Assembly: GCA_046759445.1 (NCBI GenBank)
Contig: JBHICG010000028.1
Span: 1-39,360 of the forward strand
DNA: 39,360 bases
Reading direction: 5' to 3'
Origin: Candidatus Scalinduaceae bacterium
GTDB lineage: Bacteria > Planctomycetota > Brocadiia > Brocadiales > Scalinduaceae
Every line of letters begins with the position of its first letter. Position 1 is the first letter of the stretch. Of this stretch, positions 4,467 to 35,400 are shown one piece after another. Below the pieces are notes generated by a model that saw only the letters and a list, made by a program, of their open reading frames with translations, was not told the origin of the DNA and did not search any database. Made by a program: the position numbers and the translations under genes.

Positions 4467-7382
4467 TTATTTTTTAGAAAGGAACTCCCTCTTCAAATAC
4501 CTTCCTGTATAAGACCTTTTGCTTTGAGTAATTTTCTCCGGGGAACCAGCGGCAACAACATATCCTCCTTTGTCACCGCCATCAGGTCCCAGGTCTATTA
4601 TGTAGTCTGCCGTCTTTATGACATCAAGATTATGTTCAATAACTATAACCGTATTTCCCATATCCGTCAATCTGTGAAGTATCTTTAAAAGGTTTTGTAT
4701 GTCTGCAAAGTGCAATCCTGTGGTCGGTTCGTCCAATATGTAAAGTGTTTTTCCAGTGCTTTGTTTTGCCAGTTCAGTTGATAATTTTATCCTTTGCGCC
4801 TCACCACCAGAAAGAGTCGTGCTGGACTGTCCAAGCGTTATGTATCCCAAACCCACGTCATGTAATGTCCTTAATATGCGTTCTATACTTGGAATATTCC
4901 TAAAAAATTCATGCGCTTCGTCTACACGCATATCCAGTATATCAGAAATATTTTTGCCTTTATAGGTTATTTCCAATGTTTCCGGATTGTATCGTTTCCC
5001 TCTACATTGCTCGCATATCACAAACATATCTGGCAGAAAGTGCATTGAAAACTTCTTTAAACCCTGTCCCTCGCATAATTCGCATCGACCACCTTTTACA
5101 TTAAAACTGTAACGACCGGGTTTGTATCCTCGTATCTTTGATTCCTTTGTCTGGGCAAATATTCTCCTTATATGATTAAATAGATCCGTATATGTTGCGG
5201 GGTTAGAACGCGGTGTGCGTCCAATTGGAGATTGATCTATTTCAATAACCTTATCAATATTTTCTATACCCGTTATCTTGTCAAATTTACCTGGTTTACG
5301 GCGACTACCGTAAATCGCTTTCATTAATGCCCTGCGCAAGATCTGGCTTGTAAGTGTGCTCTTACCTGATCCTGAAACTCCAGTTATACAGCAAAAAACC
5401 TTTAAGGGAATCCTGACATCGATTGATTTAAGGTTGTTTTCCCTTGCGCCTTTTATCAGGATTGAATTTTTAAGGTCTATTTTTTTTCTATATCTGGGGA
5501 TTTCTATCTTGAGTTTATGATTAAGGTACTGTGAGGTTAATGATTCGTTACTGGATTTAACCTCATGAACAGTACCTTTTGCCACAATCTTACCTCCATG
5601 TTTGCCGGCGCCTGGTCCCAGATCAACGACATAATCAGCGTTGCGTATAGTTTCTTCATCATGTTCTACAACTATTACGGTATTGTCTAAATCTTTTAAT
5701 TTTTTCAGTGTATTAATCAACCTTTTATTATCTCTCAGGTGCAGGCCTATCGTTGGTTCATCCAGTACGTAACACACTCCAACCAGACCAGTTGCGACCT
5801 GGGTAGCCAATTGAATCCTTTGTGTTTCTCCTCCTGCAAGTGTGTTACTTCTTCTATCCAGTGTCAAATAATGCAACCCTATATCACACATAAAATTCAA
5901 TCGAACCATAATTTCTTTTAATATCCCTCTTGCAATAATTTCTCTTCCACCTTCAAATTTGAGAGATTTAAAAAAACTTAATGCCTCATCTACAGTCATT
6001 AAAGTGACTTCATTAATCGTCTTACTATTAATCTTCACCGCTAGAGCTTCAGGTCTTAATCTTGCTCCTTTACAAGCTTCACATGCGTCATATTCCATAT
6101 ATCTTTCAAGACGTTTGATAACATCACTACTATTCGTCCTTTCGTACACACGCAACAAATTTGGGATGATGCCTTCAAAACTCTCAGAGTTATTAACGCC
6201 TTTTTGTCTTCCCTTATCTCCAGAAACTTCGGCAAATAAAAGCTCGTCTTTTGTTTTTTTAGAGATTTGTGTCTTGCCGTATAATAAAATGTCTTCGATT
6301 TTTTTATTAAGCTTTTTGAAAGGGACCTTGAGGTCTACATCGTATTTTCTGGAAAAGTTATCCAGTAAATCATTATAATGTCTTTGTGTAATTGAACTCC
6401 AATTGGACCATGCATGAACGGCCCCTTCACTTAAACTCAATTCTTTGTTCGGACAGATCAGTTCTGGATCAAAGTACAATGTCATTCCAAGGCCTTCACA
6501 ATCCTTGCATGCTCCATATGGACTGTTAAAGGAAAACATTCTAGGGACAAGCTCATCATAACCTATCCCGCAGTGAGGACAGGAATAACGTTCACTAAAA
6601 ACCATGTCATACCACTTCCCCCTCTTTTCTTTGGTAATAATTACCACTCCTCGTCCCAGTTCCAAGCCCGTATTTACAGAATCGTAAAGCCTTTTGTGGA
6701 TATCACCCTTAACTACCAACCTGTCTACGACAATATCAATATCATGTATTTTATACCTGCTCAGTTTAATATCAACGTTTACGTCAAAGATGTTTCCATC
6801 AACCCGCACACGCACGAAACCCTTGCGCTTTGTCGTTTGAAAAATCTCTTTGTGCTCACCTTTCTTACCCTTAATGATGGGTGCCAGAATCATAATCTTT
6901 GTCCCTTCAGGGATCTGATATACTCTTTGTAAAATCTGTTCTACTGTTTGCCTTGTTATTGCAGTACCACAATTATGGCAATAGGGTTCTCCTGCTTTGG
7001 CAAAAAGGAGACGTAAGTAATCATATATCTCAGCTGTAGTGGCGACTGTGGAGCGTGGGCCTGTATTGCTTGTGCGTTGTTCAATTGCAATTGTAGGCGG
7101 AAGACCTTCAATGATATCAACGTCCGGCTTTTGCATTTGATCAAGGAATTGTCTTGCATATGAGGAAAGGCTTTCTATATAACGTCGTTGCCCTTCCGCA
7201 TAAATAGTATCAAAGGCCAGAGAGGATTTCCCAGAACCGCTGACACCCGTTATGACCACAAACTTATCTCTGGGTATGTCGATATTTATACTTTTGAGGT
7301 TATGCTGTCTTGCACCCTTTATAGATATGTGGTTATTAATTGCATGTTTATAAAAATTACTTGTTGATTTTTTTGTTCGCAT
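4467..7382 (-). CDS. uvrA: Excinuclease ABC subunit A
   Basis: GARQHNLK, two Walker A GVSGSGKS motifs, [14 protein letters not shown], CxxC zinc fingers, [19 protein letters not shown]. Confidence 0.99.
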
Positions 7383-8889
7383 CAGACATCTTCTTCCAAT
7401 CCTGAATCAATTGAACTAATAGGCGCACACCCACTCCAGTAGCGCCTTTTCTTATATATGGTGTGTCTCTTTCTACCAAGAAGGTTCCTGCAATATCAAG
7501 GTGAACCCATGGAAACTCTTCTACAAACTTACCTAAAAAACATGCTGCCGTGATAGCGCCTGCATATCGTCCGCCAATATTTTTGACATCAGCTATAACG
7601 CTCTTTAGCAGGTCGTAATATTCATCCCATAGTGGTAATTCCCATACTCTTTCATAACATTTATCAGCGGCTTTTTTTACTCTGTTTTTAAGTTCATCAT
7701 TATTTCCAAACATACCTGATGCAAAGGTGCCTAAGGCCACAACACAAGAACCCGTTAATGTAGCTAGGTCTATTACGGTGTCTGGCTTATACCTCTTTGC
7801 ATAACTAAGCGCATCTGCCAGTATCAGGCGACCTTCGGCATCTGTATTTAAAACCTCTACCGTCTTTCCTGACATACATTTGATAATATCACCAGGTTTC
7901 AGTGCTGTGCCACTAGGCATGTTTTCTGAACAAGGTACCAGCCCGACAAGATGTACTGAAGGTTTAAGTTTTGGTATAGCCATAAAAGTGCCAAGAACAG
8001 CAGCAGCGCCTGCCATATCAGCCTTCATTAAGTCCATATCCTTAACTGGTTTTAAGGATATCCCCCCGGAGTCAAATGTTATGCCCTTACCTATTATGAC
8101 AATTGTATCATTAGTTTTTTTCCTGGTGTTATATTCGAGAATAATAAATTTGGGTGGTTGAGTACTACCTCTAGAAACATTCAAAATACCACCCATGCCA
8201 AGCTTACGCATATCGGGCTTAGACATAATTTTGCATTTGATGCCTGCTTTTTTTGCAATCTCCTTTGCTTTGTTTGCAAGGAAAGTTGGTGTGGCATCAC
8301 TACTAGCCATATTTACTATGTCACGCGCAAAGCTTACTGCGTCAGCTACAACCTGAGTATCTTTAACTACAGTTTTAACCTTTCCTAACTTGTCTTTTTT
8401 TTGTAAGAGCAAGGTAAAATTGTTAATGTCTGCTTTCTCTTCCTTTTTTAATGTTTTGTACATAGTAAAGTTATATAACGACAATAAAACACCCTCTACA
8501 ATTGAACGGGTAGTGTCCTCTATGGGAATATCCTTATAGTTCGTATTGTATAATAACATCTCAAAGTTTTTGAGTTTTTTTCCTTGAATTGTTCTTGCCG
8601 TAGTACCAGCTGCCTGTCGAATCTTATCCGATGATAATTCCTTCGATTTACCCAGTCCAACTAACATAAGCCTTTTCGGTTTGATCTTCTTATTGGTTGG
8701 AATCATTAAAACTTCATTTAATTTTCCAGTAAAATCATTGCTTTCAAGCAAATTGGAAATAACATTCCCGGAGGCTTTATTAAGTGCGTCTAATTCAGCA
8801 GGTATCTCTTTCGCATCCTCAAAAAGGCTTATTACAATTACGTCCGTTAATTCTTTTTCGGCTCTGCCAGATTTTACTGATATCTTCAT
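7357..8889 (-). CDS. pepA: Leucyl aminopeptidase (M17 family)
   Basis: GKGITFDSGG, MKADMAGAA, NTDAEGRL, WVHLDIAG. ATG at 8889 follows GGAGG/GAGG (alternative GTG at 8898); 3' end overlaps the first uvrA ATG by 26 nt. Confidence 0.97.
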   Translation of the reverse strand: MKISVKSGRAEKELTDVIVISLFEDAKEIPAELDALNKASGNVISNLLESNDFTGKLNEVLMIPTNKKIKPKRLMLVGLGKSKELSSDKIRQAAGTTARTIQGKKLKNFEMLLYNTNYKDIPIEDTTRSIVEGVLLSLYNFTMYKTLKKEEKADINNFTLLLQKKDKLGKVKTVVKDTQVVADAVSFARDIVNMASSDATPTFLANKAKEIAKKAGIKCKIMSKPDMRKLGMGGILNVSRGSTQPPKFIILEYNTRKKTNDTIVIIGKGITFDSGGISLKPVKDMDLMKADMAGAAAVLGTFMAIPKLKPSVHLVGLVPCSENMPSGTALKPGDIIKCMSGKTVEVLNTDAEGRLILADALSYAKRYKPDTVIDLATLTGSCVVALGTFASGMFGNNDELKNRVKKAADKCYERVWELPLWDEYYDLLKSVIADVKNIGGRYAGAITAACFLGKFVEEFPWVHLDIAGTFLVERDTPYIRKGATGVGVRLLVQLIQDWKKMSDANKKINK

Positions 8890-15055: not shown

Positions 15056-15129
15056 TGGCTACCCGGGGAGGATTCGAACCTCCAATGAGAGAACCAAAAT
15101 CTCTAGTGTTACCATTACACTACCGGGTA
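15056..15129 (-). tRNA. tRNA-Gln (anticodon TTG)
   Basis: TACCCGG/CCGGGTA acceptor stem, G discriminator, encoded CCA, anticodon arm agaga-ttTTGgt-tctct, T-arm ggagg-TTCGAAT-cctcc. Confidence 0.97.
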
Positions 15130-27451: not shown

Positions 27452-30400
27452 TTAGTTGCCGTCCATATCTCCTGTAGCCATAACCTCCGGGCTCAACGGG
27501 TGAAGCTTCTGCCAACTGGCATTGTTCTTCATAATCCACATGCCAATTCCTGTTCCAAAGTCTATAATGACCTCATCCTTGCCATTGCCGTCCATATCAC
27601 CTGTAACCATAGTCTCCGGGCTCAACGGGTGAAGCTTCTGCCAACTGGCATTGTTCTTCATAATCCACATGCCAATTCCTGTTCCAAAGTCTATAATGAC
27701 CTCATCCTTGCCATTGCCGTCCATATCACCTGTAACCATAGTCTCCGGGCTCAACGGATGAAGTTTCTGCCAACTGGCATTGTTCCTCCTAATCCATATG
27801 CCAATACCAGGTCCAAAGTCTATGACGACCTCATCCTTGCCGTTTCCGTCCATATCCCCCGTAACCATAGTCTCCGGGCTCAACGGATGAAGTTTCTGCC
27901 AACTGGCATCGTTCTTCATAATCCATATGCCAATACCAGGTCCAAAGTCTATGATGACCTCATCCTTGCCGTTTCCGTCCATATCCCCCGTAACCATAGT
28001 CTCCGGGCTCAACGGATGAAGTTTCTGCCAACTGGCATCGTTCCTCCTAATCCATATGCCAATACCAGGTCCAAAGTCTATGACGACCTCATCCTTGCCG
28101 TTTCCGTCCGTATCCCCCGTAACCATAGTCTCTGGGCGCAACGGATGAAGTTTCTGCCAACTGGTATCGTTCTTCATAATCCATATGCCAATACCAGGAC
28201 CAAAGTCTATAACAACTTCGCCCTTGCCATTGCCGTCCATATCACCTGTTGTCATGATCTCTGGAGAAACTTTGTGCAGCTTTTTCCATTTGCTGTTGTT
28301 CATCAGTATCCAGGCACCATGAATCTTGCCAAAATCAATGATGACTTCGTCAAGATAAGTTATAGCTACCGTAAACATATTTGGAAGCGTAGCAGATTGG
28401 TTATCTGGATTTGTTACCACCACGTTCCATTCCCCTGTCTTTGCGCCAGCGAGATTGATTGCGCACGTGATTTGGATTGAACTGACAACGGTTACATTGG
28501 TGGCGTCAATGTATGTCTGGCCAGCCTTTGTCAGCTTCACGGTTGCGTCTTTCTTAAATCCACTGCCTGCAATATTTGCGGTAACACTCTGACCTTTCTT
28601 GCCGAATGAGGGGGTGATTGTAGATACCGCTAATGGTGAATCGTAATAAATTGTTATTACTTGTGCAGTTATGTTTTTGTTATTACTGTTGTCATAGGCC
28701 ATTACGGTTATGGGGTTTGCTCCAAGATTTAGATTTACCACAATGTTCCAGTTAGCCGTAACATTACCCGATGCAGTATCATTATTCGCCCTGATTCCGT
28801 TTACTGTTACCTTCTCGATACCATTGTTGCCCAGACCTTCATCAGTCGCATTCCCTCTTAATGTTATGCTAGACGTGTTTACGTGATCTTCATTGTTATG
28901 ACTCGTTATATTGAGGCTCGGACCATTTGTGTCAGGAGGATTATAGGTTACAATGATTGTATCTTCGCTGCTAACATTACCAGCTACATCATATGCCCTT
29001 GCCTTAATTGTGTTAGTATCGGAAGTTAGAGTTATTCCAGCTACAGAAAAGGAAGCAGAATTGCCTGAAACACTGTTATCCCATCCACTGCTACTATTTG
29101 TTGTTTGGTTATAAACATAAACCTTATCTAATCCCGATCCACCAGAATCAGTAGCAGAACCACCTATCGTAATTAATGACGTTGAAGCAGGGCATGATGA
29201 ATTGCAGGGAGAAGTTATGTCTACTGTGGGGGAGATATTGTCAGATGGCTGACCTGTCATATCCACTGTCACAGATACTGTTTGTATAGTACCCCAATTT
29301 CCTGCATCATCCTTTCCTCTTACATTAATTTGGTATGGAGAATTGGTTGCAATCCAGGAAGATGTGTTTACGATTGCCTGTACGTTTTCTTGTATAGAAT
29401 TAAATGTGCCATCCACTGCATTCATTGCAGTTCCATTGCCTTCTCCAGGGTCAGAATTTCCAATGTAATATTCAGCAGCAGCAATGTTTGAGTTGCCATT
29501 TGAAGTATCATCAATTATTGCAGAAATCGTTATGGAATTATCGACTCCTTCTGTAATAGTGGCCTTTGAGGAGGACAGGTTTGTTACAATTGGGGCTATA
29601 GTATCATCTACAGTAAGTGTTATATTCACGCCATTAGGATAAGGATTTTCATCAGGATCATTAGAATAAACTATTAAACGATCAGTATTAGTTCCATAGT
29701 TTGCAAGACTCGGATTAACAATTACTGTTACATTTTGTGAATTTCCAGAATTGATGCTAAATGGTGGAGGAGGAGAAAAACTAAGCCACGAAGAATTATT
29801 TTCTTTAATTATATCGGTTATATTAAGGATACCTAAACCATCGTTATAAATTGTGAATGTTTTTGATTGTGACCCACTAGTCAAAACATCTGCAGTCATA
29901 ATATCGCCATAATTGGAAATATTTATTACAGAGATGTTTGTAGAAGTACCATTTTTCAATTTGGAATTAGGTAAGGTAGAATCAGTGAAGCTCGAATTAT
30001 TTCCACTAAAATAAAACATATCAGTATCAGCACGGCTTTCGTTTTCGTCCAATTTACTTTTTCCTAAACTCCCCTCATTGGCCTCCTCGATATCCACCCC
30101 TTTATCGTTTTCATCAGCATTAACCGTATTAGAACCAGGCCAGAGAACAGTCTTCAATTTATCAATATGATATATAACAAGACCACCATGCCCAGAGGCG
30201 CCTGTCCATCTCTGGAAGCCGATGTCGTAGCCAGAAGATTGCCTGTTTTCTATAAGGAAATATTGGTTTGGGTCTGTAGTATTTATCCTGAATATCGAAG
30301 CACTATTACCATCTGCCTTTGGGAAGGTAATTGATTGCCCTGACAATATAGTGGTTACTGTTCCCCATCCAAGAGATTCTTTACTCCATGCACAAAGATG

Positions 30401-31531
30401 TGTTGGAGAAGAACCTGCGTTAGACCCTGATGCAGCCCCCCAACTTCCTGTACCCATTAACCCAAATCCACCAATTCCTGCCGAATCCCCATTTAATGGT
30501 ACCGTATCATAAAGATCCGGCAATGAAAACATCAAATGCCCGAGTTCATGGCACATAATACCAATAGTAGCTAAATTTGCTCCATGCCTTTCACCAATCT
30601 GAGCATATTCAATTATTGTTTTCCCATCCACAGAAGGGTTACCAACACCCCACATACTCGACTTATGTCCCCATACTGACGGTGAAAGTGAGCCAGATAT
30701 TGATGCCTCATAGCCGGCTACTATGATAATGATTGACAGTTCTGTTGTTTCAATAATACTGTTACCATTAGTATCATACTGTGAATAATCAATGTAAGGA
30801 TCAGCAGCTACAATTGCATCTTTTGCTATTTGCTGATTTGCAATTACAATTGAAGATCCCGTATTGGGGTGGCTCCCACTCACCCTTATCCATCCTACAA
30901 ATCCGTCGTTGGCAGTACCATGAGATTCGGTTGCTGGAGAGACGCCTACGTTTGAGTATGAGATATTACTAAAATAATCTGCAACGCTGCCACTGGAGCC
31001 AAAAAATAGAGGTTGAATTTGTGTTACAGAATAATTAGCAGGCTGATCCGAATAATCTACCCCTATTACGAGTAGATTTTTAGTACCACTAACTGGCGCC
31101 TGTAAAGACATAGCTTCTGATGTAATTTTTGATGTAAGCATACTGGGTGACGTTTTTTTAGGAGGTCGTAAACCTTTGGGAATGCCTAACGTGGAAGGAT
31201 ATACCTCACCTACTACAATTTCAGTCATGATGTTCAAACTTAAAGATGAGGCATTAGAATTCTTTTCACCAGAAGGTACAAGATATTCCCAATTGCCATT
31301 GTCTTGATTATGCGAGATCCCATAACCATCTTTTGTCTCAAACCAGTTATACCATTCATCCCCTTTCTGTCTCGCCTCAAAGGAATAACCCAATGGTTGC
31401 TGTAATTCTATAAGTCCATCATAAGCTGGGACAGCCCATGAAATTGCCGGGCTAAAAAATATAAAAATAAATAATAGCCAAAGATATTTGTTAATATGAT
31501 AAAACGTTTTTTTGTAATCCATTGTTTGCAT
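27452..31531 (-). CDS. Secreted M6-family (immune inhibitor A-like) zinc metalloprotease with Ig-like/IPT domains and C-terminal FG-GAP/VCBS-like propeller
   Basis: Signal peptide ending SWA-VPA, propeptide GDEWYNWFET.DGY, GSVADYF, CHELGHLMFSLPDLYD (30536-30550 for HELGH), LMGTGSW, YFLIENRQ, then Ig-like domains and seven GDMDGNGK repeats. Confidence 0.9.
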   Translation of the reverse strand: MQTMDYKKTFYHINKYLWLLFIFIFFSPAISWAVPAYDGLIELQQPLGYSFEARQKGDEWYNWFETKDGYGISHNQDNGNWEYLVPSGEKNSNASSLSLNIMTEIVVGEVYPSTLGIPKGLRPPKKTSPSMLTSKITSEAMSLQAPVSGTKNLLVIGVDYSDQPANYSVTQIQPLFFGSSGSVADYFSNISYSNVGVSPATESHGTANDGFVGWIRVSGSHPNTGSSIVIANQQIAKDAIVAADPYIDYSQYDTNGNSIIETTELSIIIIVAGYEASISGSLSPSVWGHKSSMWGVGNPSVDGKTIIEYAQIGERHGANLATIGIMCHELGHLMFSLPDLYDTVPLNGDSAGIGGFGLMGTGSWGAASGSNAGSSPTHLCAWSKESLGWGTVTTILSGQSITFPKADGNSASIFRINTTDPNQYFLIENRQSSGYDIGFQRWTGASGHGGLVIYHIDKLKTVLWPGSNTVNADENDKGVDIEEANEGSLGKSKLDENESRADTDMFYFSGNNSSFTDSTLPNSKLKNGTSTNISVINISNYGDIMTADVLTSGSQSKTFTIYNDGLGILNITDIIKENNSSWLSFSPPPPFSINSGNSQNVTVIVNPSLANYGTNTDRLIVYSNDPDENPYPNGVNITLTVDDTIAPIVTNLSSSKATITEGVDNSITISAIIDDTSNGNSNIAAAEYYIGNSDPGEGNGTAMNAVDGTFNSIQENVQAIVNTSSWIATNSPYQINVRGKDDAGNWGTIQTVSVTVDMTGQPSDNISPTVDITSPCNSSCPASTSLITIGGSATDSGGSGLDKVYVYNQTTNSSSGWDNSVSGNSASFSVAGITLTSDTNTIKARAYDVAGNVSSEDTIIVTYNPPDTNGPSLNITSHNNEDHVNTSSITLRGNATDEGLGNNGIEKVTVNGIRANNDTASGNVTANWNIVVNLNLGANPITVMAYDNSNNKNITAQVITIYYDSPLAVSTITPSFGKKGQSVTANIAGSGFKKDATVKLTKAGQTYIDATNVTVVSSIQITCAINLAGAKTGEWNVVVTNPDNQSATLPNMFTVAITYLDEVIIDFGKIHGAWILMNNSKWKKLHKVSPEIMTTGDMDGNGKGEVVIDFGPGIGIWIMKNDTSWQKLHPLRPETMVTGDTDGNGKDEVVIDFGPGIGIWIRRNDASWQKLHPLSPETMVTGDMDGNGKDEVIIDFGPGIGIWIMKNDASWQKLHPLSPETMVTGDMDGNGKDEVVIDFGPGIGIWIRRNNASWQKLHPLSPETMVTGDMDGNGKDEVIIDFGTGIGMWIMKNNASWQKLHPLSPETMVTGDMDGNGKDEVIIDFGTGIGMWIMKNNASWQKLHPLSPEVMATGDMDGN
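27455..28351 (-). repeat. Intragenic tandem array: 7 x 129 bp (43 aa)
   Basis: Units DEV(I/V)IDFG.GIG.WI..N.ASWQKLHPLSPETMVTGDMDGNGK; 897 bp equals 7 x 129 minus 6; units 2-7 nearly identical in DNA. Confidence 0.95.
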
Positions 31532-31597
31532 GGCATTAAAAATACGAAAGATAAACTCTCAGAATAAAAATATAAGTATCTAATACTAATGAAATAG

Positions 31598-31771
31598 AAC
31601 TTAGTTCGCTCCGCTCACAGTTGGAATGGCTGCTTGATACTTGTTTCACGTTTAAACTCGAAATCCGAATATCGAAATCCGAAACAAATTCTAAATTCAA
31701 ATTTTCAAATGTTCAAAACAACATAAGCTAAGCTTAGCTTTGGATATTTCGTATTTCGTACTTCGGATTTC
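31598..31771. repeat. Composite intergenic repeat: GAACTTAGTTCGC motif, heptamer-based inverted repeat and 16-bp palindrome
   Basis: gaaatccgaatatcgaaatccgaaa (31660-31684) pairs imperfectly with tttcgtatttcgtacttcggatttc (31747-31771); AAGCTAAGCTTAGCTT perfect palindrome at 31725-31740. Confidence 0.75.
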
Positions 31772-31876
31772 AAAAGTCGAGAATCCAGTATCCATGAGTT
31801 AACAAATTGCAAGCCCAAAAATCTTTTAATATCAAATATCAAGAAGTTATAGAATTCTCGAGACGTTTGGATAAAG

Positions 31877-32344
31877 CTAAATGCCTTCCTCATTATCAAA
31901 CACCTCAACCAGGAATAAATACTGCCCCCATTCATCGCCTGAAACTCGAAGTACTAAAGATATTTTGACTCCGATTTTAATAGATGGTGGAATACCGATC
32001 TCAGAAAATATTTCAACTGACTTCCCTACATAATCATTTCCAAAGTTAACATAATCGCCAAATTGTTCTACTTTATCTATTTTCATAATAATTTTATGAA
32101 TCCCCTTTTGCTCACATACAATGTCTTTTACTATCCCAGTAGCAACAAATTTATTCTCAATGACAACTCCAGCTAATTTACAAAATAAATTATCCGATAG
32201 CGTATTTATGCCAAACATGTTATTGTGATAATTTATCTTAGCTAACTCTTCATTATTGGTAACAGCAGAAGTTGTTTTCATATAGACAAAACCTTGAACA
32301 AATAGGATTAAAAATATGATTAACAAGTAATTAATTTTTTTCAT
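31877..32344 (-). CDS. Hypothetical exported protein (about 155 aa, beta-rich, possibly OB-fold-like)
   Basis: ATG at 32344 gives a signal-like MKKINYLLIIFLILFVQG (ORF track extends to 32410); ends LRVSGDEWGQYLFLVEV. Confidence 0.75.
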   Translation of the reverse strand: MKKINYLLIIFLILFVQGFVYMKTTSAVTNNEELAKINYHNNMFGINTLSDNLFCKLAGVVIENKFVATGIVKDIVCEQKGIHKIIMKIDKVEQFGDYVNFGNDYVGKSVEIFSEIGIPPSIKIGVKISLVLRVSGDEWGQYLFLVEVFDNEEGI

Positions 32345-32431
32345 TATTAAGAACATCCTATGCAAATTGTTTAATAATGTAGGGTTGGACTGCCTTTCCC
32401 AGGGAGACATTGCACACCATAATTTATAACT

Positions 32432-35400
32432 TCAAAAATCAAGAGATGTTGGATCTATTCTTATATCTGGTGATTGTGTTATAATCACATTAATAGAAAT
32501 ACTCTGAATATTCCCCCAATTTCCCGCAACGTCTCTTCCTCGTACATTTACGGTGTATGGAGAATTGGCTGCTGTCCATGATGAGGTATCTATATTTGCC
32601 TGAACATTTTCACTTGTTGAATTAAATGATCCATCTGTAGGCGACATTGATAACCCATTCCCGTTTCCTGGATCAGAATTTCCGCTGTAATACTCAGCAG
32701 CGGCAATATTTGAATTGCCTGTTGTATTATCATCAATGGTTGTAGAAATTGTTATAGAATTATCACCTTCAGTAATAGGATTCTTCGAAGGTACGGGTAT
32801 TGTTGGAACAGGGCCTGTGGTGTCAACAGTTCCGGAAATCACTGCTTGGGTGTACGAACCCGTAACACTTAGCCCCTGCCCATCATCGACCGTCACCTGG
32901 ATCGTACAGTTCTGCTGGCTACCAGTCGTGTTCGGAGGTGACATCCATGTCGGGTTCTGCACATTTGGGTTGCTAAAACTCCCGTTCGACCCGAGTCCCT
33001 GACAGCTCGCCGTCCATACGTAACTCGGTTCGTGCCCCAGCGAGTCCGTAGCCGTCGCACTCAGGTTTACCGTCCCCTCAGAGATTACAGGATTATTATC
33101 ACCGCTTGGCCCACTCGTAATGTTTAGCGTGTGTCCAACCTCGAATACTAATTGGGCTATACCCCCCGACTCGAAGTTCGTAATAGGTTCCTGGCCTGGA
33201 ATATTGTCGAATTTGGCATAGATCATTACCGTAGCTGTGGTGGCTAAACCAGGTAAGTCATTAGCAAGAAGTTTGGTGTACTGATAAGTCTCTCCTGGAT
33301 TGAGCGATAATGGTGACCCAAACTGCTCGGAAGGCCAGGTTCGCTCGTAAACAAACCCATCTTTATCCTTAAATTCACCGATTGCTTGAACACGGTCTAG
33401 TATTACTGTGACACCACTTGTATTTTTTATTGTCACATCAACTGTAGCACTTCCATTAAGCACATAAGGCGGAGGTTCCAGAAGTCTTATTCCATCAACA
33501 ATACTCAATGATGTTACTCCACCTGGATCAACTTTATGAATATATGTACTCTGTTGACTCAAGCCTTGTCCATCGCTAACAGTTACTCCAATTGTGCAAT
33601 CCTGCTGACTACCAGTATTGTTTACCGGGGCTATCCAGCTCGGTAACCGAGTTGCGGTTCCAATGAGTGTTCCATTTGACGACAGGGTAGGACAAGATGC
33701 AGTCCACGCATAGCTTAAATTGTGTCCTAACGAGTCCACCGCTGTCACGCTCAGATTTGCAGTTCCTCTTGGGACCACTGGGTTTGGACTCCCGTTTGCC
33801 CCGCTTATGATGTCCAGTGTGTGAGAGAGGGTAGGTGTAAAATTAGCCACAAGTGTTCTATTAGCACTGGCTGTGAATGTATAAGTGGATGTTGTGTTGA
33901 CTTCTATCCCATTTTCAGTCCAATTCGCAAAACTGTAACCAGTGTTAGCACTTGCCACTACAAACACAATTACTCCATTAGAATAGCCTCCGTCTCCACT
34001 GGTTGTTCCTCCTTGTGATGGTGAGGCGCTAGTGTTAATCGTATAAATGGTGCTTAGAACCGTAATTTTATTGGGGGTTGTACTGCCGATGTTGTTATTC
34101 TCATTAGCTTCGGTAACAACACCTGGCGCTGGGCCATCGGCATAAACCGTTATCCAATAGTCTCCTTGCAAAGCATTAGTAGGAATCGTAACATCTTTGA
34201 TTACTGTACTGGATTCATTTGGAGCAAGAGAGGCCATTGAGAAATTAGCCAATAGATTCTGAGTTCCATAAGCACTCGTAGCTAAGGAAATTCTATTATT
34301 AAATCCTCCTGATGCAGCATCGCCTATGTTTTTCACCGTAAAGGTGACTGGAATGGTTGATCCTGCGCTTACTGCTGAAGAAGTGTCAACCGAAACTGAA
34401 AGTACAGTAAGATCGGACAATGTACCGGGTGATGTAACGTTAACATTTGTCTTAAAATAGATTGTTTCTTTCCATATTACGTTCTCGGTCACATTTTTTT
34501 TTTCTAAATTTGCTGTTATTTTTACCTCCTTTTTCCCGGTAGAGTTATAAGTATGATTAGGATTCCATCCGGTACCAGTCCCGCCGTCTCCAAAATCCCA
34601 TGCTAAACTAAGTATATCAAGTCCTGCTAAGCTAGATGCAATAGGATAGATATTGCCATTAAACTCTATTTCAATGTCTTTCTGGAGTAATAAAGGATCT
34701 GCATTGTTGGCTATTCCTTCATTATTAATGATATAGGTTTTTTCAGGGATACTTAAAGAAACATTATATCTTGTATCAGCAACTGCTGCGGGGTCTCTAA
34801 AGACGCGACCTGGGGCATTTATAGGGGTAAAATTATTATAGATGGTATATTTTATTCGTATTGGTGGACATTGTTGACCTAGATTATTTACTATGGGCCT
34901 ATAATCAGGTATGGTCCAAGGAGGATGCGCCTGATTGTTGTCTGAACCTGTTGGCTCAGTACCGCAAAATGCATCATAACCCTGTGAATCTGTACAATAA
35001 ATACAATCAGAATCAGGATCTTCTTTAAGATCCCAAAGTTTTTTTATATCTATTAGATCATATTTATAAAAGCTGTCATAAAAACTGTTAAGTTTGTTAA
35101 GGTCAGGTTCCTCATGGGCAAAATTACCAAAATTTACATATACGACACCCGGAGTAAACTTATCATTATTGTTATACCAATTACCTATATTTATGCCAGC
35201 TACAGTGCACTTATATTTATCAAAATAAATCCCATGACCTCTTGATTCTATAAATGCAACATAACGATGGTCTCCATATTTATTAACTCCCTCGTTAATA
35301 TCACTGGAACCTTGAGCTGGGATTACCGTTATATTCTGGCCAATTGGATAATTCATCCAGATGTTATGAGCCATAGACTCTATAATAATTAAATCACCAT

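Follow-up and report, generated by a model that had tools for sequence, protein, structure and literature searches.

We propose that a secreted M6 metalloprotease (P0002) is held on a separately exported multi-domain scaffold protein (P0001) by natural strand complementation in trans, a reading to which we give a probability of roughly 0.7. Both genes lie in the window, by which we mean the whole analysed stretch of 39,360 nucleotides (Table 1). According to this model, the last 13-15 residues of P0001 would supply the cognate first strand (A/A') to an Ig-like beta-sandwich of choice-of-anchor-D type, whose remaining strands, B-G, would be those that immediately follow the M6 catalytic domain in P0002. 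Both proteins would be exported by signal peptides of their own, and outside the cytoplasm the tail of P0001 would insert beside strand B in antiparallel orientation (DIRID against TIYND) before running alongside strand G (TSL against NITL), which would close the sandwich and keep the protease non-covalently on the scaffold. The window would represent the two-gene form of a widespread single chain in which scaffold domains are followed by strand A, by a propeptide with a catalytic domain and by B-G. Once the propeptide is removed from a single-chain form, strand A would be severed from the enzyme, and we infer that the mature state of such forms would therefore also consist of two strand-joined chains; the window may be considered as encoding this end state directly.

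Table 1. Positions of the relevant features in the window (nucleotides of the forward strand; residues refer to the protein named)
Feature	Position	Strand	Comment
P0001	32432..36832	-	1466-aa secreted scaffold protein
X1 domain, P0001 residues 1337-1452	32477..32824	-	directly before the strand A tail
P0001 tail SPDIRIDPTSLDF	32435..32473	-	TGA directly after, at 32432..32434
P0003	31877..32410	-	small ORF; probable start MKKINYLL at 32344, signal-peptide-like N-terminus
Imperfect inverted repeat (long hairpin)	31659..31772	-	within the spacer of 345 nt that separates P0003 from P0002
P0002	27452..31531	-	1359-aa secreted M6 metalloprotease
M6 catalytic domain, P0002 residues 156-446	30194..31066	-	TIGR03296
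Strands B-G of P0002	29609..29863	-	start 8 residues past the last M6 strand
X2 domain, P0002 residues 643-760	29252..29605	-	paralogue of X1

Results

The scaffold and the protease

P0001 begins with a propeller-like region and PKD, CARDB and InlB B-repeat-like domains, continues with repeated Ig-like modules and the X1 domain, and ends with the strand A tail; profile scans with Pfam and NCBIfam revealed no catalytic domain in it. Its translation terminates in ...NVIITQSPDIRIDPTSLDF with TGA immediately behind, exactly as the earlier note had read it. The N-terminal strand motif P-x-I-x-[IV]-x-P-x-x-L-x-F that stands before TFTI.N.G is present in this system, but on P0001, within the tail PDIRIDPTSLDF. 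A strand-A HMM of 16 positions, trained on 31 strand-A instances from proteins other than P0001, gives the tail 20.2 bits, and the cis instances in genome loci score 9.4-24.7 bits; as judged from its sequence, the tail is no chance match to strand A.

In P0002 the signal peptide is followed by the M6 N-terminal region, the catalytic domain (HELGH) and the M6 C-terminal beta region, and the second half of the protein consists of the B-G module, X2 (62% identical to X1), Big_7-type domains and seven 43-aa repeats. The M6 domain profile TIGR03296 scores 157.7 bits on it (cutoff 110.8), and the translation contains ...IMCHELGHLMF..., which we take to be the HExxH zinc-binding motif; among the Pfam PF05547 matches at E 0.01 relatives of P0002 are listed and P0002 is not. 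The stretch ...NISNYGDIMTADVLTSGSQSKTFTIYNDGLGILNITDI...SNDPDENPYPNGVNITLTV, encoded by 29609..29872, had been described as an Ig segment behind the M6 domain without a first strand of its own, and the partial profile match agrees with this: Pfam HYDIN_VesB_CFA65-like_Ig (PF22544) aligns to residues 552-627 with 18.3 bits, under its cutoff of 25.5, and since the match spans only profile positions 18-91 of 100, P0002 is without the N-terminal strand region. Strand G (GVNITLTV) is present, and the absent element is the N-terminal A/A' strand. The junction from M6 to strand B measures 8 aa in trans forms and 9-11 aa in cis forms, and from the layout of the domains we see no spare strand in the protein's own chain. 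Both reading frames are intact, being open over 1466 and 1359 aa as noted before, and each starts with a signal peptide, assessed by eye only.

Between the two genes lie 900 bp and one ORF, P0003, which matches no Pfam or NCBIfam family; a structure search with it gave Atlas rows of TM at most 0.54, the OB-like and NTR-like ones at 0.41-0.45, which is at most a weak lead. P0003 is probably no part of the system, because it is missing from the other two-gene loci described below. Nothing in the scans for repeats, composition, promoters and terminators and Rfam families pointed to a mobile element at the junction, and no close orthologues of P0001 and P0002 were found. Reading the TGA after LDF as glycine (table 25), which would give LDFG in frame with P0003, was rejected by reasoning only: the two long ORFs are free of internal TGA under table 11, and the text downstream of the TGA is a signal-peptide-like start, not strand B.

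Strand A and strands B-G as parts of one domain

The Ig-like domain in question is of a widespread SNDPDENPYP type related to choice-of-anchor D, and its usual layout is a PDIRIxPxxLxF strand A upstream of B-G on the same chain, with a propeptide and a catalytic domain (S8, M6, C25, C1, M12B, M10, C39-like or amidase) nested in between. The earlier note had advised to look for single-chain homologues that carry a nested domain at this loop, and this layout proved to be the usual one. A distal cis strand A accompanies 42 of the 47 strong B-G modules (at least 85 bits; an independent set of 78 genome loci), the gap from A to B-G in the genome loci being 289-1309 aa with a median of 456. Among 49 proteins of the subfamily 33 have strand A in cis (31 distal, 2 contiguous), a count which is partly circular because the strand-A HMM was made from many of these proteins. 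The contiguous state is seen in P0274 and P0308, each twice, where the A motif stands 9-10 residues ahead of strand B and is continuous with the TFTIYNDG...SNDPDENPYP module. Contiguous P0308 reaches 46.8 bits on choice_anch_D NF012200 (cutoff 45) over profile positions 11-108, and nested B-G relatives score 20-21 bits over positions 31/35-108 only. In all 11 of the first 11 relatives B-G comes right after the catalytic domain with no adjacent A. Since relatives carry the two pieces either contiguous or split by a nested pro-enzyme, strand A and B-G are, on this comparison, complementary parts of one domain, as had been suggested for the window.

The B-G modules group partly by taxon and not by enzyme, in a tree that is poorly resolved. 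Among solved structures, sequence searches with P0002, the cis S8 homologue P0065 and the B-G profile yielded none that covers the split domain.

Two-gene loci

A scan for the A motif over 13,500 six-frame ORFs (1.43 million residues, the window plus 78 loci; matches of at least 9 bits) found strand A in 46 ORFs, 43 of which contain B-G as well. The other three matches are each the extreme C-terminus of a gene located just upstream of a B-G protease without its own A, so that all 46 ORFs or ORF pairs combine A with B-G. A search for reading frames ending in the A motif before an orphan module had been suggested earlier, and beside the window it brought up two loci, L020 (M6, Acidobacteriota) and L039 (papain C1, Thiotrichaceae), in both of which the paired genes abut, which they do not in the window, a difference that speaks against the reading; the L020 assembly has evident frame disruptions upstream. 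In the three two-gene loci the stop codon falls 0-1 residue past the final F of strand A, and by eye each of the downstream proteases starts with what looks like a signal peptide of its own. In a quick M6 tree the window and L020 are separated by branches of 99 and 95 support, and the two-gene form would therefore have arisen at least twice within M6. L037 alone has a strong B-G module and a readable context with no A in its own ORF or at the C-terminal end of the upstream gene; it holds an A-like stretch in another frame, which resembles a frameshift.

Structure prediction and covariation

Prediction of the complex of P0001 with P0002 gave ipSAE values of 0.66, 0.77 and 0.84 (median 0.77), the best of three controls being 0.00; of 157 solved complexes 116 attain the mark used for ipSAE, as do 2 of 215 mismatched pairs, though with our own alignment as input these figures are approximate. 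Contacts agree between the runs to at least 97%, with a partner pLDDT of at least 86. On the side of P0001 the predicted interface consists of residues 1452-1466 only, and on the side of P0002 of residues 555-570, 593-607, 621-629 and 631-640, so the tail is placed onto strands B, F and G at the A/A' position. Such a model may just complete a familiar Ig fold, and it speaks for compatibility and not for binding in the cell. A prediction of this kind had been proposed as a check, and it came out with nothing except the tail entering the A/A' position and with clean controls; together with L020, L039 and the exclusive association of A with B-G, it favours the first of two readings that the earlier note had offered, namely completion in trans.

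In the AF2 model of P0065 the A region forms two strands (43-46 and 49-55) with a mean pLDDT of 77 at residues 41-50 and below 50 in the flanking segments, in a model that is poor overall (mean pLDDT 56.6) and whose output does not give the sheet partner of these strands. In the cis M6 homologue P0054 the A strand (52-63) is unstructured and undocked, with pLDDT below 50 over residues 37-96 and a very shallow alignment at the strand, and the model thus lends the proposal no support; the best Foldseek match of this model is the InhA2 zymogen (4yu6), and its M6 core is like InhA.

Raw mutual information couples position A5 (I/V) to column 66 (V/I) with Z 8.4 and A4 (R) to column 9 (D) with Z 5.3. 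Phylogeny-aware covariation between A and B-G is not significant (p of at least 0.25, on 3-4 independent pairs only), and the predicted interface holds 8 of the top 20 covarying pairs at a base rate of 36 of 86 columns, i.e. no enrichment.

Discussion

Origin and alternative explanations

The second reading of the earlier note, in which a cassette entered a loop of an ancestral giant gene, is plausible as an origin and is compatible with completion in trans, being no competitor to it. The Scalindua protein P0041 does not fit the part of undivided ancestor, as it shares only the X domain (82% identity to X1) and the C-terminal repeats (57%). The signal peptide and M6 part of P0002 belong to an anammox paralogue clade of 40 members whose other 39 lack B-G, and this points to an origin by recombination.

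From here it is one step to suppose that the arrangement is a relic, i.e. that an A/B-G gene was broken by a signal-peptide-M6 cassette, the tail of P0001 being a leftover and the B-G strands of P0002 being stable or dispensable alone. The clade just mentioned, the unrelated ORF and 345-nt structured spacer between the genes, and the lack among our findings of an orthologous P0001-P0002 pair that would show conservation are all in line with it. We regard it as unlikely, since the tail scores like working cis strands, the stop codon coincides exactly with the domain boundary here and in two unrelated two-gene loci, L037 is the only one among strong B-G modules with readable context to lack an A in its own ORF or at the end of the upstream gene, and the predicted interface is specific to the tail.

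Completion of B-G from within the protease chain itself, for example by the last M6 strand, IMTADV, with the tail serving, say, as a sorting or processing signal, appears to us still more doubtful. The strand of the IMTADV type belongs to the M6 fold in about 40 paralogues without any B-G, the junction is equally long in cis forms that have an A, and in the complex model the A/A' position is taken by the tail and not by the M6 strand. The P0054 model, where the last M6 strand (591-598) directly precedes strand B (601-609) with A undocked, would suit self-completion, as would P0011 and P0035, which consist of a signal peptide, M6 and B-G with no A within the chain; P0035, however, is sister to L020, whose upstream gene has the tail.

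That a single-chain nested gene only looks split through a mis-join or base errors is very improbable: P0003 shares the reading frame of the TGA that ends P0001, and chimeras can occur in metagenome assemblies, but the interval from the tail to M6 contains the whole of a small ORF, then 345 nt of non-coding spacer and finally a signal peptide with an AVPAYDG N-terminus, of the kind typical for the family, parts unlike the linker-plus-propeptide of cis forms, the composition is continuous across the region, and the same two-gene layout is found in two other genomes.

Relation to known systems

In chaperone-usher and related pili an exported Ig-like fold short of one strand is completed by a strand of another polypeptide, and strand complementation between P0001 and P0002 would resemble this, as the sandwich of the protease would receive its missing strand from another polypeptide after export. 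In pili it is the C-terminal G strand that is missing; a dedicated periplasmic chaperone first fills in for it and the next subunit then takes over, an outer-membrane usher is needed too, and the product is a homopolymer. The term donor-strand complementation has also been used for archaeal filaments. Here, unlike in pili, the N-terminal A/A' strand is missing, a scaffold would donate its C-terminal tail to an enzyme as acceptor, and the product would be a 1:1 heterocomplex. NCBIfam scans of P0001-P0003 and the 20 other ORFs of the window found no chaperone or usher genes; the matches obtained were to housekeeping genes and an ABC/MFP exporter. In SpyTag/SpyCatcher and similar split-domain tags, which are engineered, a short peptide that forms one strand restores the fold of an otherwise incomplete Ig-like domain and joins two proteins through a covalent isopeptide bond, whereas the P0001/P0002 pair is natural and presumably non-covalent.

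VesB and the gingipains have a beta-sandwich after the catalytic domain, as P0002 has, in a contiguous form; to our knowledge, no sandwich strand that originates ahead of the propeptide or in a different protein has been described for them or for InhA2. B-G resemble choice-of-anchor D and HYDIN-VesB-CFA65-like Ig domains (NF012200, PF22544) in matching the C-terminal two thirds of these profiles; in contrast to them, the SNDPDENPYP subfamily is mostly discontinuous, and P0002 alone stays under both cutoffs without the first 17-35 positions. The B-G module falls under curated cutoffs because a third of the domain is elsewhere.

The RTX adhesins MpIBP and FrhA are reported to have a split Ig-like domain with a nested ligand-binding region in a continuous chain (PMC10865825). 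Lipins likewise have a split Ig-like domain, with a nested phosphatase region, the chain again being continuous. Where a sandwich is interrupted by an inserted domain, the N- and C-termini of the insert therefore meet at the sandwich. The single-chain relatives of our subfamily similarly have a functional domain nested in the beta-sandwich. Unlike in the adhesins and lipins, the insert is a propeptide with a peptidase (or amidase) and the break always comes after strand A, and in three loci the two halves are encoded separately; in the window the ORFs that carry them are kept apart by a stop codon, P0003 and a spacer.

Significance

This view may be extended to the whole subfamily, and we consider the chances for and against such an extension to be about equal. 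A and B-G would then constitute a natural modular non-covalent strand clasp, of tag-and-catcher kind, that holds secreted hydrolases to scaffold domains after excision of the propeptide in many bacterial and some archaeal lineages, that can be split into two genes, and in whose A-B loop enzyme cassettes are swapped; at least 8 enzyme families are found nested there. We found no description of the split A/B-G arrangement in open-access literature. If the strand complementation proposed here is real, beta-strand complementation, a principle known mainly from pilus polymerisation, would also be used for heterodimeric attachment of enzymes to scaffolds, and the undescribed architecture of a pro-enzyme nested after the first Ig-like strand, present in hundreds of secreted peptidases of many phyla, would be accounted for. 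The pair could also offer a natural short peptide and domain usable for protein docking, and in genome annotation short C-terminal tails like PDIRIxPxxLxF-stop would flag the partner genes.

The divided domain

Three consecutive ORFs lie on the minus strand of the window, encoding the large secreted scaffold protein P0001, the small ORF P0003 and the secreted M6 protease P0002. It had been claimed in the earlier note that one Ig-like domain is split between scaffold and protease, and the observation is correct at the coordinates given there, because the translations, the M6 match and the partial Ig profile match agree. P0001 ends in ...NVIITQSPDIRIDPTSLDF with TGA directly after, that is, in the first strand (strand A, PDIRIxPxxLxF) of the sandwich. 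In P0002, TIGR03296 (M6 metallopeptidase) covers residues 156-446 with 157.7 bits (cutoff 110.8), the domain contains HELGH, and its last strand, DIMTADV, is separated by eight residues from KTFTIYNDG...SNDPDENPYPNGVNITLTV, the remaining strands B-G, on which (552-627) the Pfam HYDIN/VesB-like Ig profile begins only at position 18. The further claim that P0002 has no strand A of its own before B-G also stands, the junction having no spare strand.

Coordinates of the features in the window
Feature	Position	Strand	Description
P0001	32432..36832	-	1466 aa; propeller-like N-terminal region, PKD, CARDB, InlB-B-repeat-like domains
X1 domain of P0001	32477..32824	-	residues 1337-1452 (116 residues)
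P0001 stop to P0003 ORF	32411..32434	-	TGA in frame with P0003 ORF, 21 nt downstream
P0003	31877..32410	-	small ORF; signal-peptide-like start at MKKINYLL
Inverted repeat	31659..31772		25 nt, imperfect; 62-nt spacer with second palindrome inside
P0002	27452..31531	-	1359 aa; signal-peptide-like N-terminus, M6, B-G, X2, Big_7-type domains, repeats
X2 domain of P0002	29252..29605
Repeats ending P0002	27326..28399	-	seven head-to-tail 129-nt copies, 66-94% identical to reference copy; 43-aa FG-GAP-like units
tRNA gene	15059..15129	-	Rfam RF00005, 62.4 bits

The paralogous domains X1 and X2 are 62% identical to each other, whereas X1 is 82% identical to a Scalindua protein; Pfam has no family for the X domain, which is met again in many surface proteins and multicopper-oxidase-associated ones. 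For P0003 neither Pfam nor NCBIfam has a family, and comparison with Atlas structures gave TM <= 0.54, with OB-like and NTR (TIMP-like) rows at 0.41-0.45, a weak hint that P0003 could have an OB fold or inhibit proteases. P0003 is missing from the two other two-gene loci described below and is probably unrelated. Read-through of the P0001 stop would join P0001 and P0003 into one fusion; contiguous Ig domains often have G after LDF, and a single base separates TGA from GGA.

Enzymes nested in single-chain relatives

With P0002 420-770 as query, 11 other proteins proved to carry the B-G module (40-75% identity). In each of them it stands directly behind a catalytic domain (M6, S8, C25, papain C1 or C39-like), with no P-x-I-x-V-x-P-x-x-L-D-F strand before it; the PDIRIxPxxLxF motif lies in the same chains, hundreds of residues upstream. 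Searched exhaustively, the 90-residue module gave 1754 matches (E <= 0.001), the single-stretch ones at 48-64% identity forming a distinct subfamily. HMM scoring placed strand A in cis, on the same chain as B-G, in 33 of 49 subfamily proteins, a count that is partly circular because the HMM was made from 31 of these same instances. It was not found in the other 16, at least seven of which are short entries (202-417 aa), possibly fragments. Only in P0274 and P0308 is A contiguous with B-G; the NCBIfam choice-of-anchor D model matches the contiguous P0308 over positions 11-108 (46.8 bits, cutoff 45) and the nested modules over 31/35-108 only (20-21 bits).

By Pfam, the inserts between A and B comprise C25 (Propeptide_C25 with Peptidase_C25; P0053, P0312, P0314), Peptidase_S8 with Inhibitor_I9 or a fervidolysin prodomain (P0058, P0067, P0068) or, at the threshold applied, without a prodomain (P0065 among other S8 proteins), M6 (P0054, P0285), papain C1 (P0070, P0280), C39-like (P0055, P0309), reprolysin M12B (P0252, P0212), matrixin M10 (P0335) and Amidase_2 (P0311), and CARDB or similar scaffold domains often stand immediately before strand A. 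In some giant proteins, or across neighbouring genes, complete A - enzyme - B-G units occur two or three at a time (loci L027, L038, L008, L042; proteins P0194, P0234, P0263), L027 having an M12B and an S8 unit within one ORF.

An independent set of 78 loci from species-representative genomes, fetched with an alignment of 18 B-G modules, contained 47 modules of at least 85 bits. Strand A (at least 9 bits) stands in the same ORF for 42 of these, 289-1309 residues upstream (median 456), so the single-chain homologues with a domain nested at this loop that the earlier note proposed to look for do exist; two more have a weaker cis A and three have none in the ORF. Scanned with Pfam at E 1e-8, 41 inserts gave Peptidase_S8 in 22, M6 in four, reprolysin M12B in three, Amidase_2 in two, a C39-like domain in one and no match in nine. 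Thirty modules of 40-85 bits are more diverged, and the narrow strand A HMM had no match in 26; with a looser motif, A-like strands, either distal or adjacent, turn up in many of them. In a poorly resolved B-G tree (L001-L049) the modules group partly by taxon, which is a hint that enzymes were swapped within a resident clasp; Acidobacteriota B-G from S8, amidase and M6 proteins, for example, cluster together, not by nested enzyme.

The two-gene form and its origins

The strand A HMM was run over 13,500 stop-to-stop ORFs totalling 1.43 million residues; it reaches 9 bits in 46 of them, and 43 of the 46 also contain B-G. The other three carry strand A as a C-terminal tail, and no other match lies as close as 40 residues to the end of an ORF: P0001 itself (...PDIRIDPTSLDF-stop), an ORF of locus L020 from Thermoanaerobaculia (...PDIRIQPLQLVFD-stop) and a gene of locus L039 from Thiotrichaceae (...PDIRIEPTTLIFE-stop). 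The earlier note had proposed to look for an orphan domain downstream of such tails, and both additional tails have an orphan B-G there. In L020 the next gene begins about 12 nt on, and its product combines a signal peptide and M6 with a B-G that lacks A. In L039 a signal peptide, LRR and PKD are found in the upstream product; the next gene overlaps and codes for a signal peptide and papain C1 together with B-G. The L020 scaffold gene (6489..8369 of that locus) contains an in-frame stop and stretches reading like the wrong frame, probably an assembly indel error or a decaying gene; the start of its downstream neighbour is clean and family-typical. The last of the three loci lacking a cis A is L037; an A-like stretch lies upstream there in another frame and not at an ORF end, which looks like a frameshift. 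The distance between the last M6 strand and strand B is eight residues in both P0002 and L020, and the cis proteins P0054 and P0285 have 9-11 residues there, hence the trans forms have no spare strand of their own.

In a quick maximum-likelihood tree of M6 domains the cis A-M6-B-G proteins form one clade (support 93), and P0011, L020 and P0035 another (99). P0002 falls inside an anammox paralogue clade of 40, the other 39 of which are without B-G, and its signal peptide and AVPAYDG N-terminus are standard among these paralogues. Branches with support 99 and 95 part P0002 from the L020 clade, so the two-gene form had at least two origins within M6, besides one with papain. The B-G of P0002 is 75-77% identical to that of P0011 and the M6 ends only 39%; evidently the P0002 M6 part recombined with a B-G-X2 tail. 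Such recombination fits, as an origin, the suggestion that a cassette was inserted into an ancestral gene. The undivided ancestor was not found. Scalindua protein P0041, considered for this role, was rejected, having only X and the terminal repeats (57% identity) in common.

The main rival to a working complex is that the P0001 tail is a non-functional relic of recombination, and we regard it as unlikely. The reading put forward in the note, that the tail completes the P0002 fold in trans, is supported by the two further two-gene loci and by complex prediction, and we would give functional trans complementation in the window a probability of roughly 0.7.

Predicted complex

P0002 34-645 (49-row alignment) was modelled with P0001 1337-1466, giving ipSAE values of 0.66, 0.77 and 0.84 (median 0.77), with 0.00 for the best of three controls; the tool's mark is reached by 116 of 157 solved complexes and 2 of 215 mismatched pairs, counts that are only rough here because our own alignment was used. 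The runs share at least 97% of contacts, with partner pLDDT of at least 86. In the prediction the confident interface on P0001 is 1452-1466 only, and X1 makes no contact. I1459, R1458, I1457 and D1456 would pair antiparallel with I561, Y562, N563 and D564/G565 of strand B, T1462-L1464 would lie against 635-638 (strand G) and 603, and further contacts are predicted with V621 and 623-629 (the SNDPDEN turn). In the model the tail is docked at the position of the A/A' strand in this kind of sandwich. The score may come partly from the model's knowledge of Ig folds, and the model shows fit, not in vivo binding.

Evidence from single-chain models is mixed. In the AF2 model of the cis S8 protein P0065, residues 43-46 and 49-55 are assigned as strands, with mean pLDDT 77 over 41-50, flanks below 50 and a poor whole model (mean 56.6). 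In that of the cis M6 protein P0054, residues 37-96, strand A among them, are disordered; of the solved structures, the InhA2 zymogen 4yu6 matches the P0054 model best (E 5e-18, TMq 0.40). Raw covariation pairs A5 with column 66 and A4 with column 9 (I1459/V621 and R1458/D564). A test that takes relatedness into account had low power, with only 3-4 independent pairs, and gave p of at least 0.25, and the top-20 covarying A/B-G pairs have no enrichment in the predicted interface.

Proposed mechanism and known systems

We propose that A and B-G would make one sandwich that clasps a pro-enzyme at both of its ends. Single-chain proteins have A upstream of the propeptide, and activation would cut the covalent link of scaffold and enzyme, which the clasp would then hold together. 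The window, L020 and L039 would encode the two-chain state directly, an A-ending scaffold and a B-G enzyme being exported separately and then joining by strand complementation.

Donor-strand complementation in pili follows the same principle. Unlike in pili, it is an N-terminal strand that is missing here, neither chaperone nor usher genes came up nearby in scans of 20 further ORFs of the window, and the proposed product is a heterodimer. Lipins have a split Ig-like domain with a nested insert, in a single chain. The window's halves lie on two chains, in contrast to lipins and to RTX adhesins, whose split Ig-like domains with nested inserts are, as described, always single-chain (PMC10865825). 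In the open-access literature we found no account of an Ig domain with a peptidase nested in it, nor of one split over two genes, and the words protease, peptidase and immunoglobulin are all absent from a 2026 domain-insertion survey (PMC13114784). The principle is known already; the large nested architecture around the window's pair appears to be undescribed.

Other features of the window

The inverted repeat has no Rfam match and its word is found once only in the window; the RNA fold of 31640-31800 (minus strand) has -39.3 kcal/mol (z -3.1). The remaining genes are housekeeping ones (uvrA, leucyl aminopeptidase, ilvD, alaS, plsX-fabH-fabD-fabF, nadB), and a MacAB-like exporter is also encoded.
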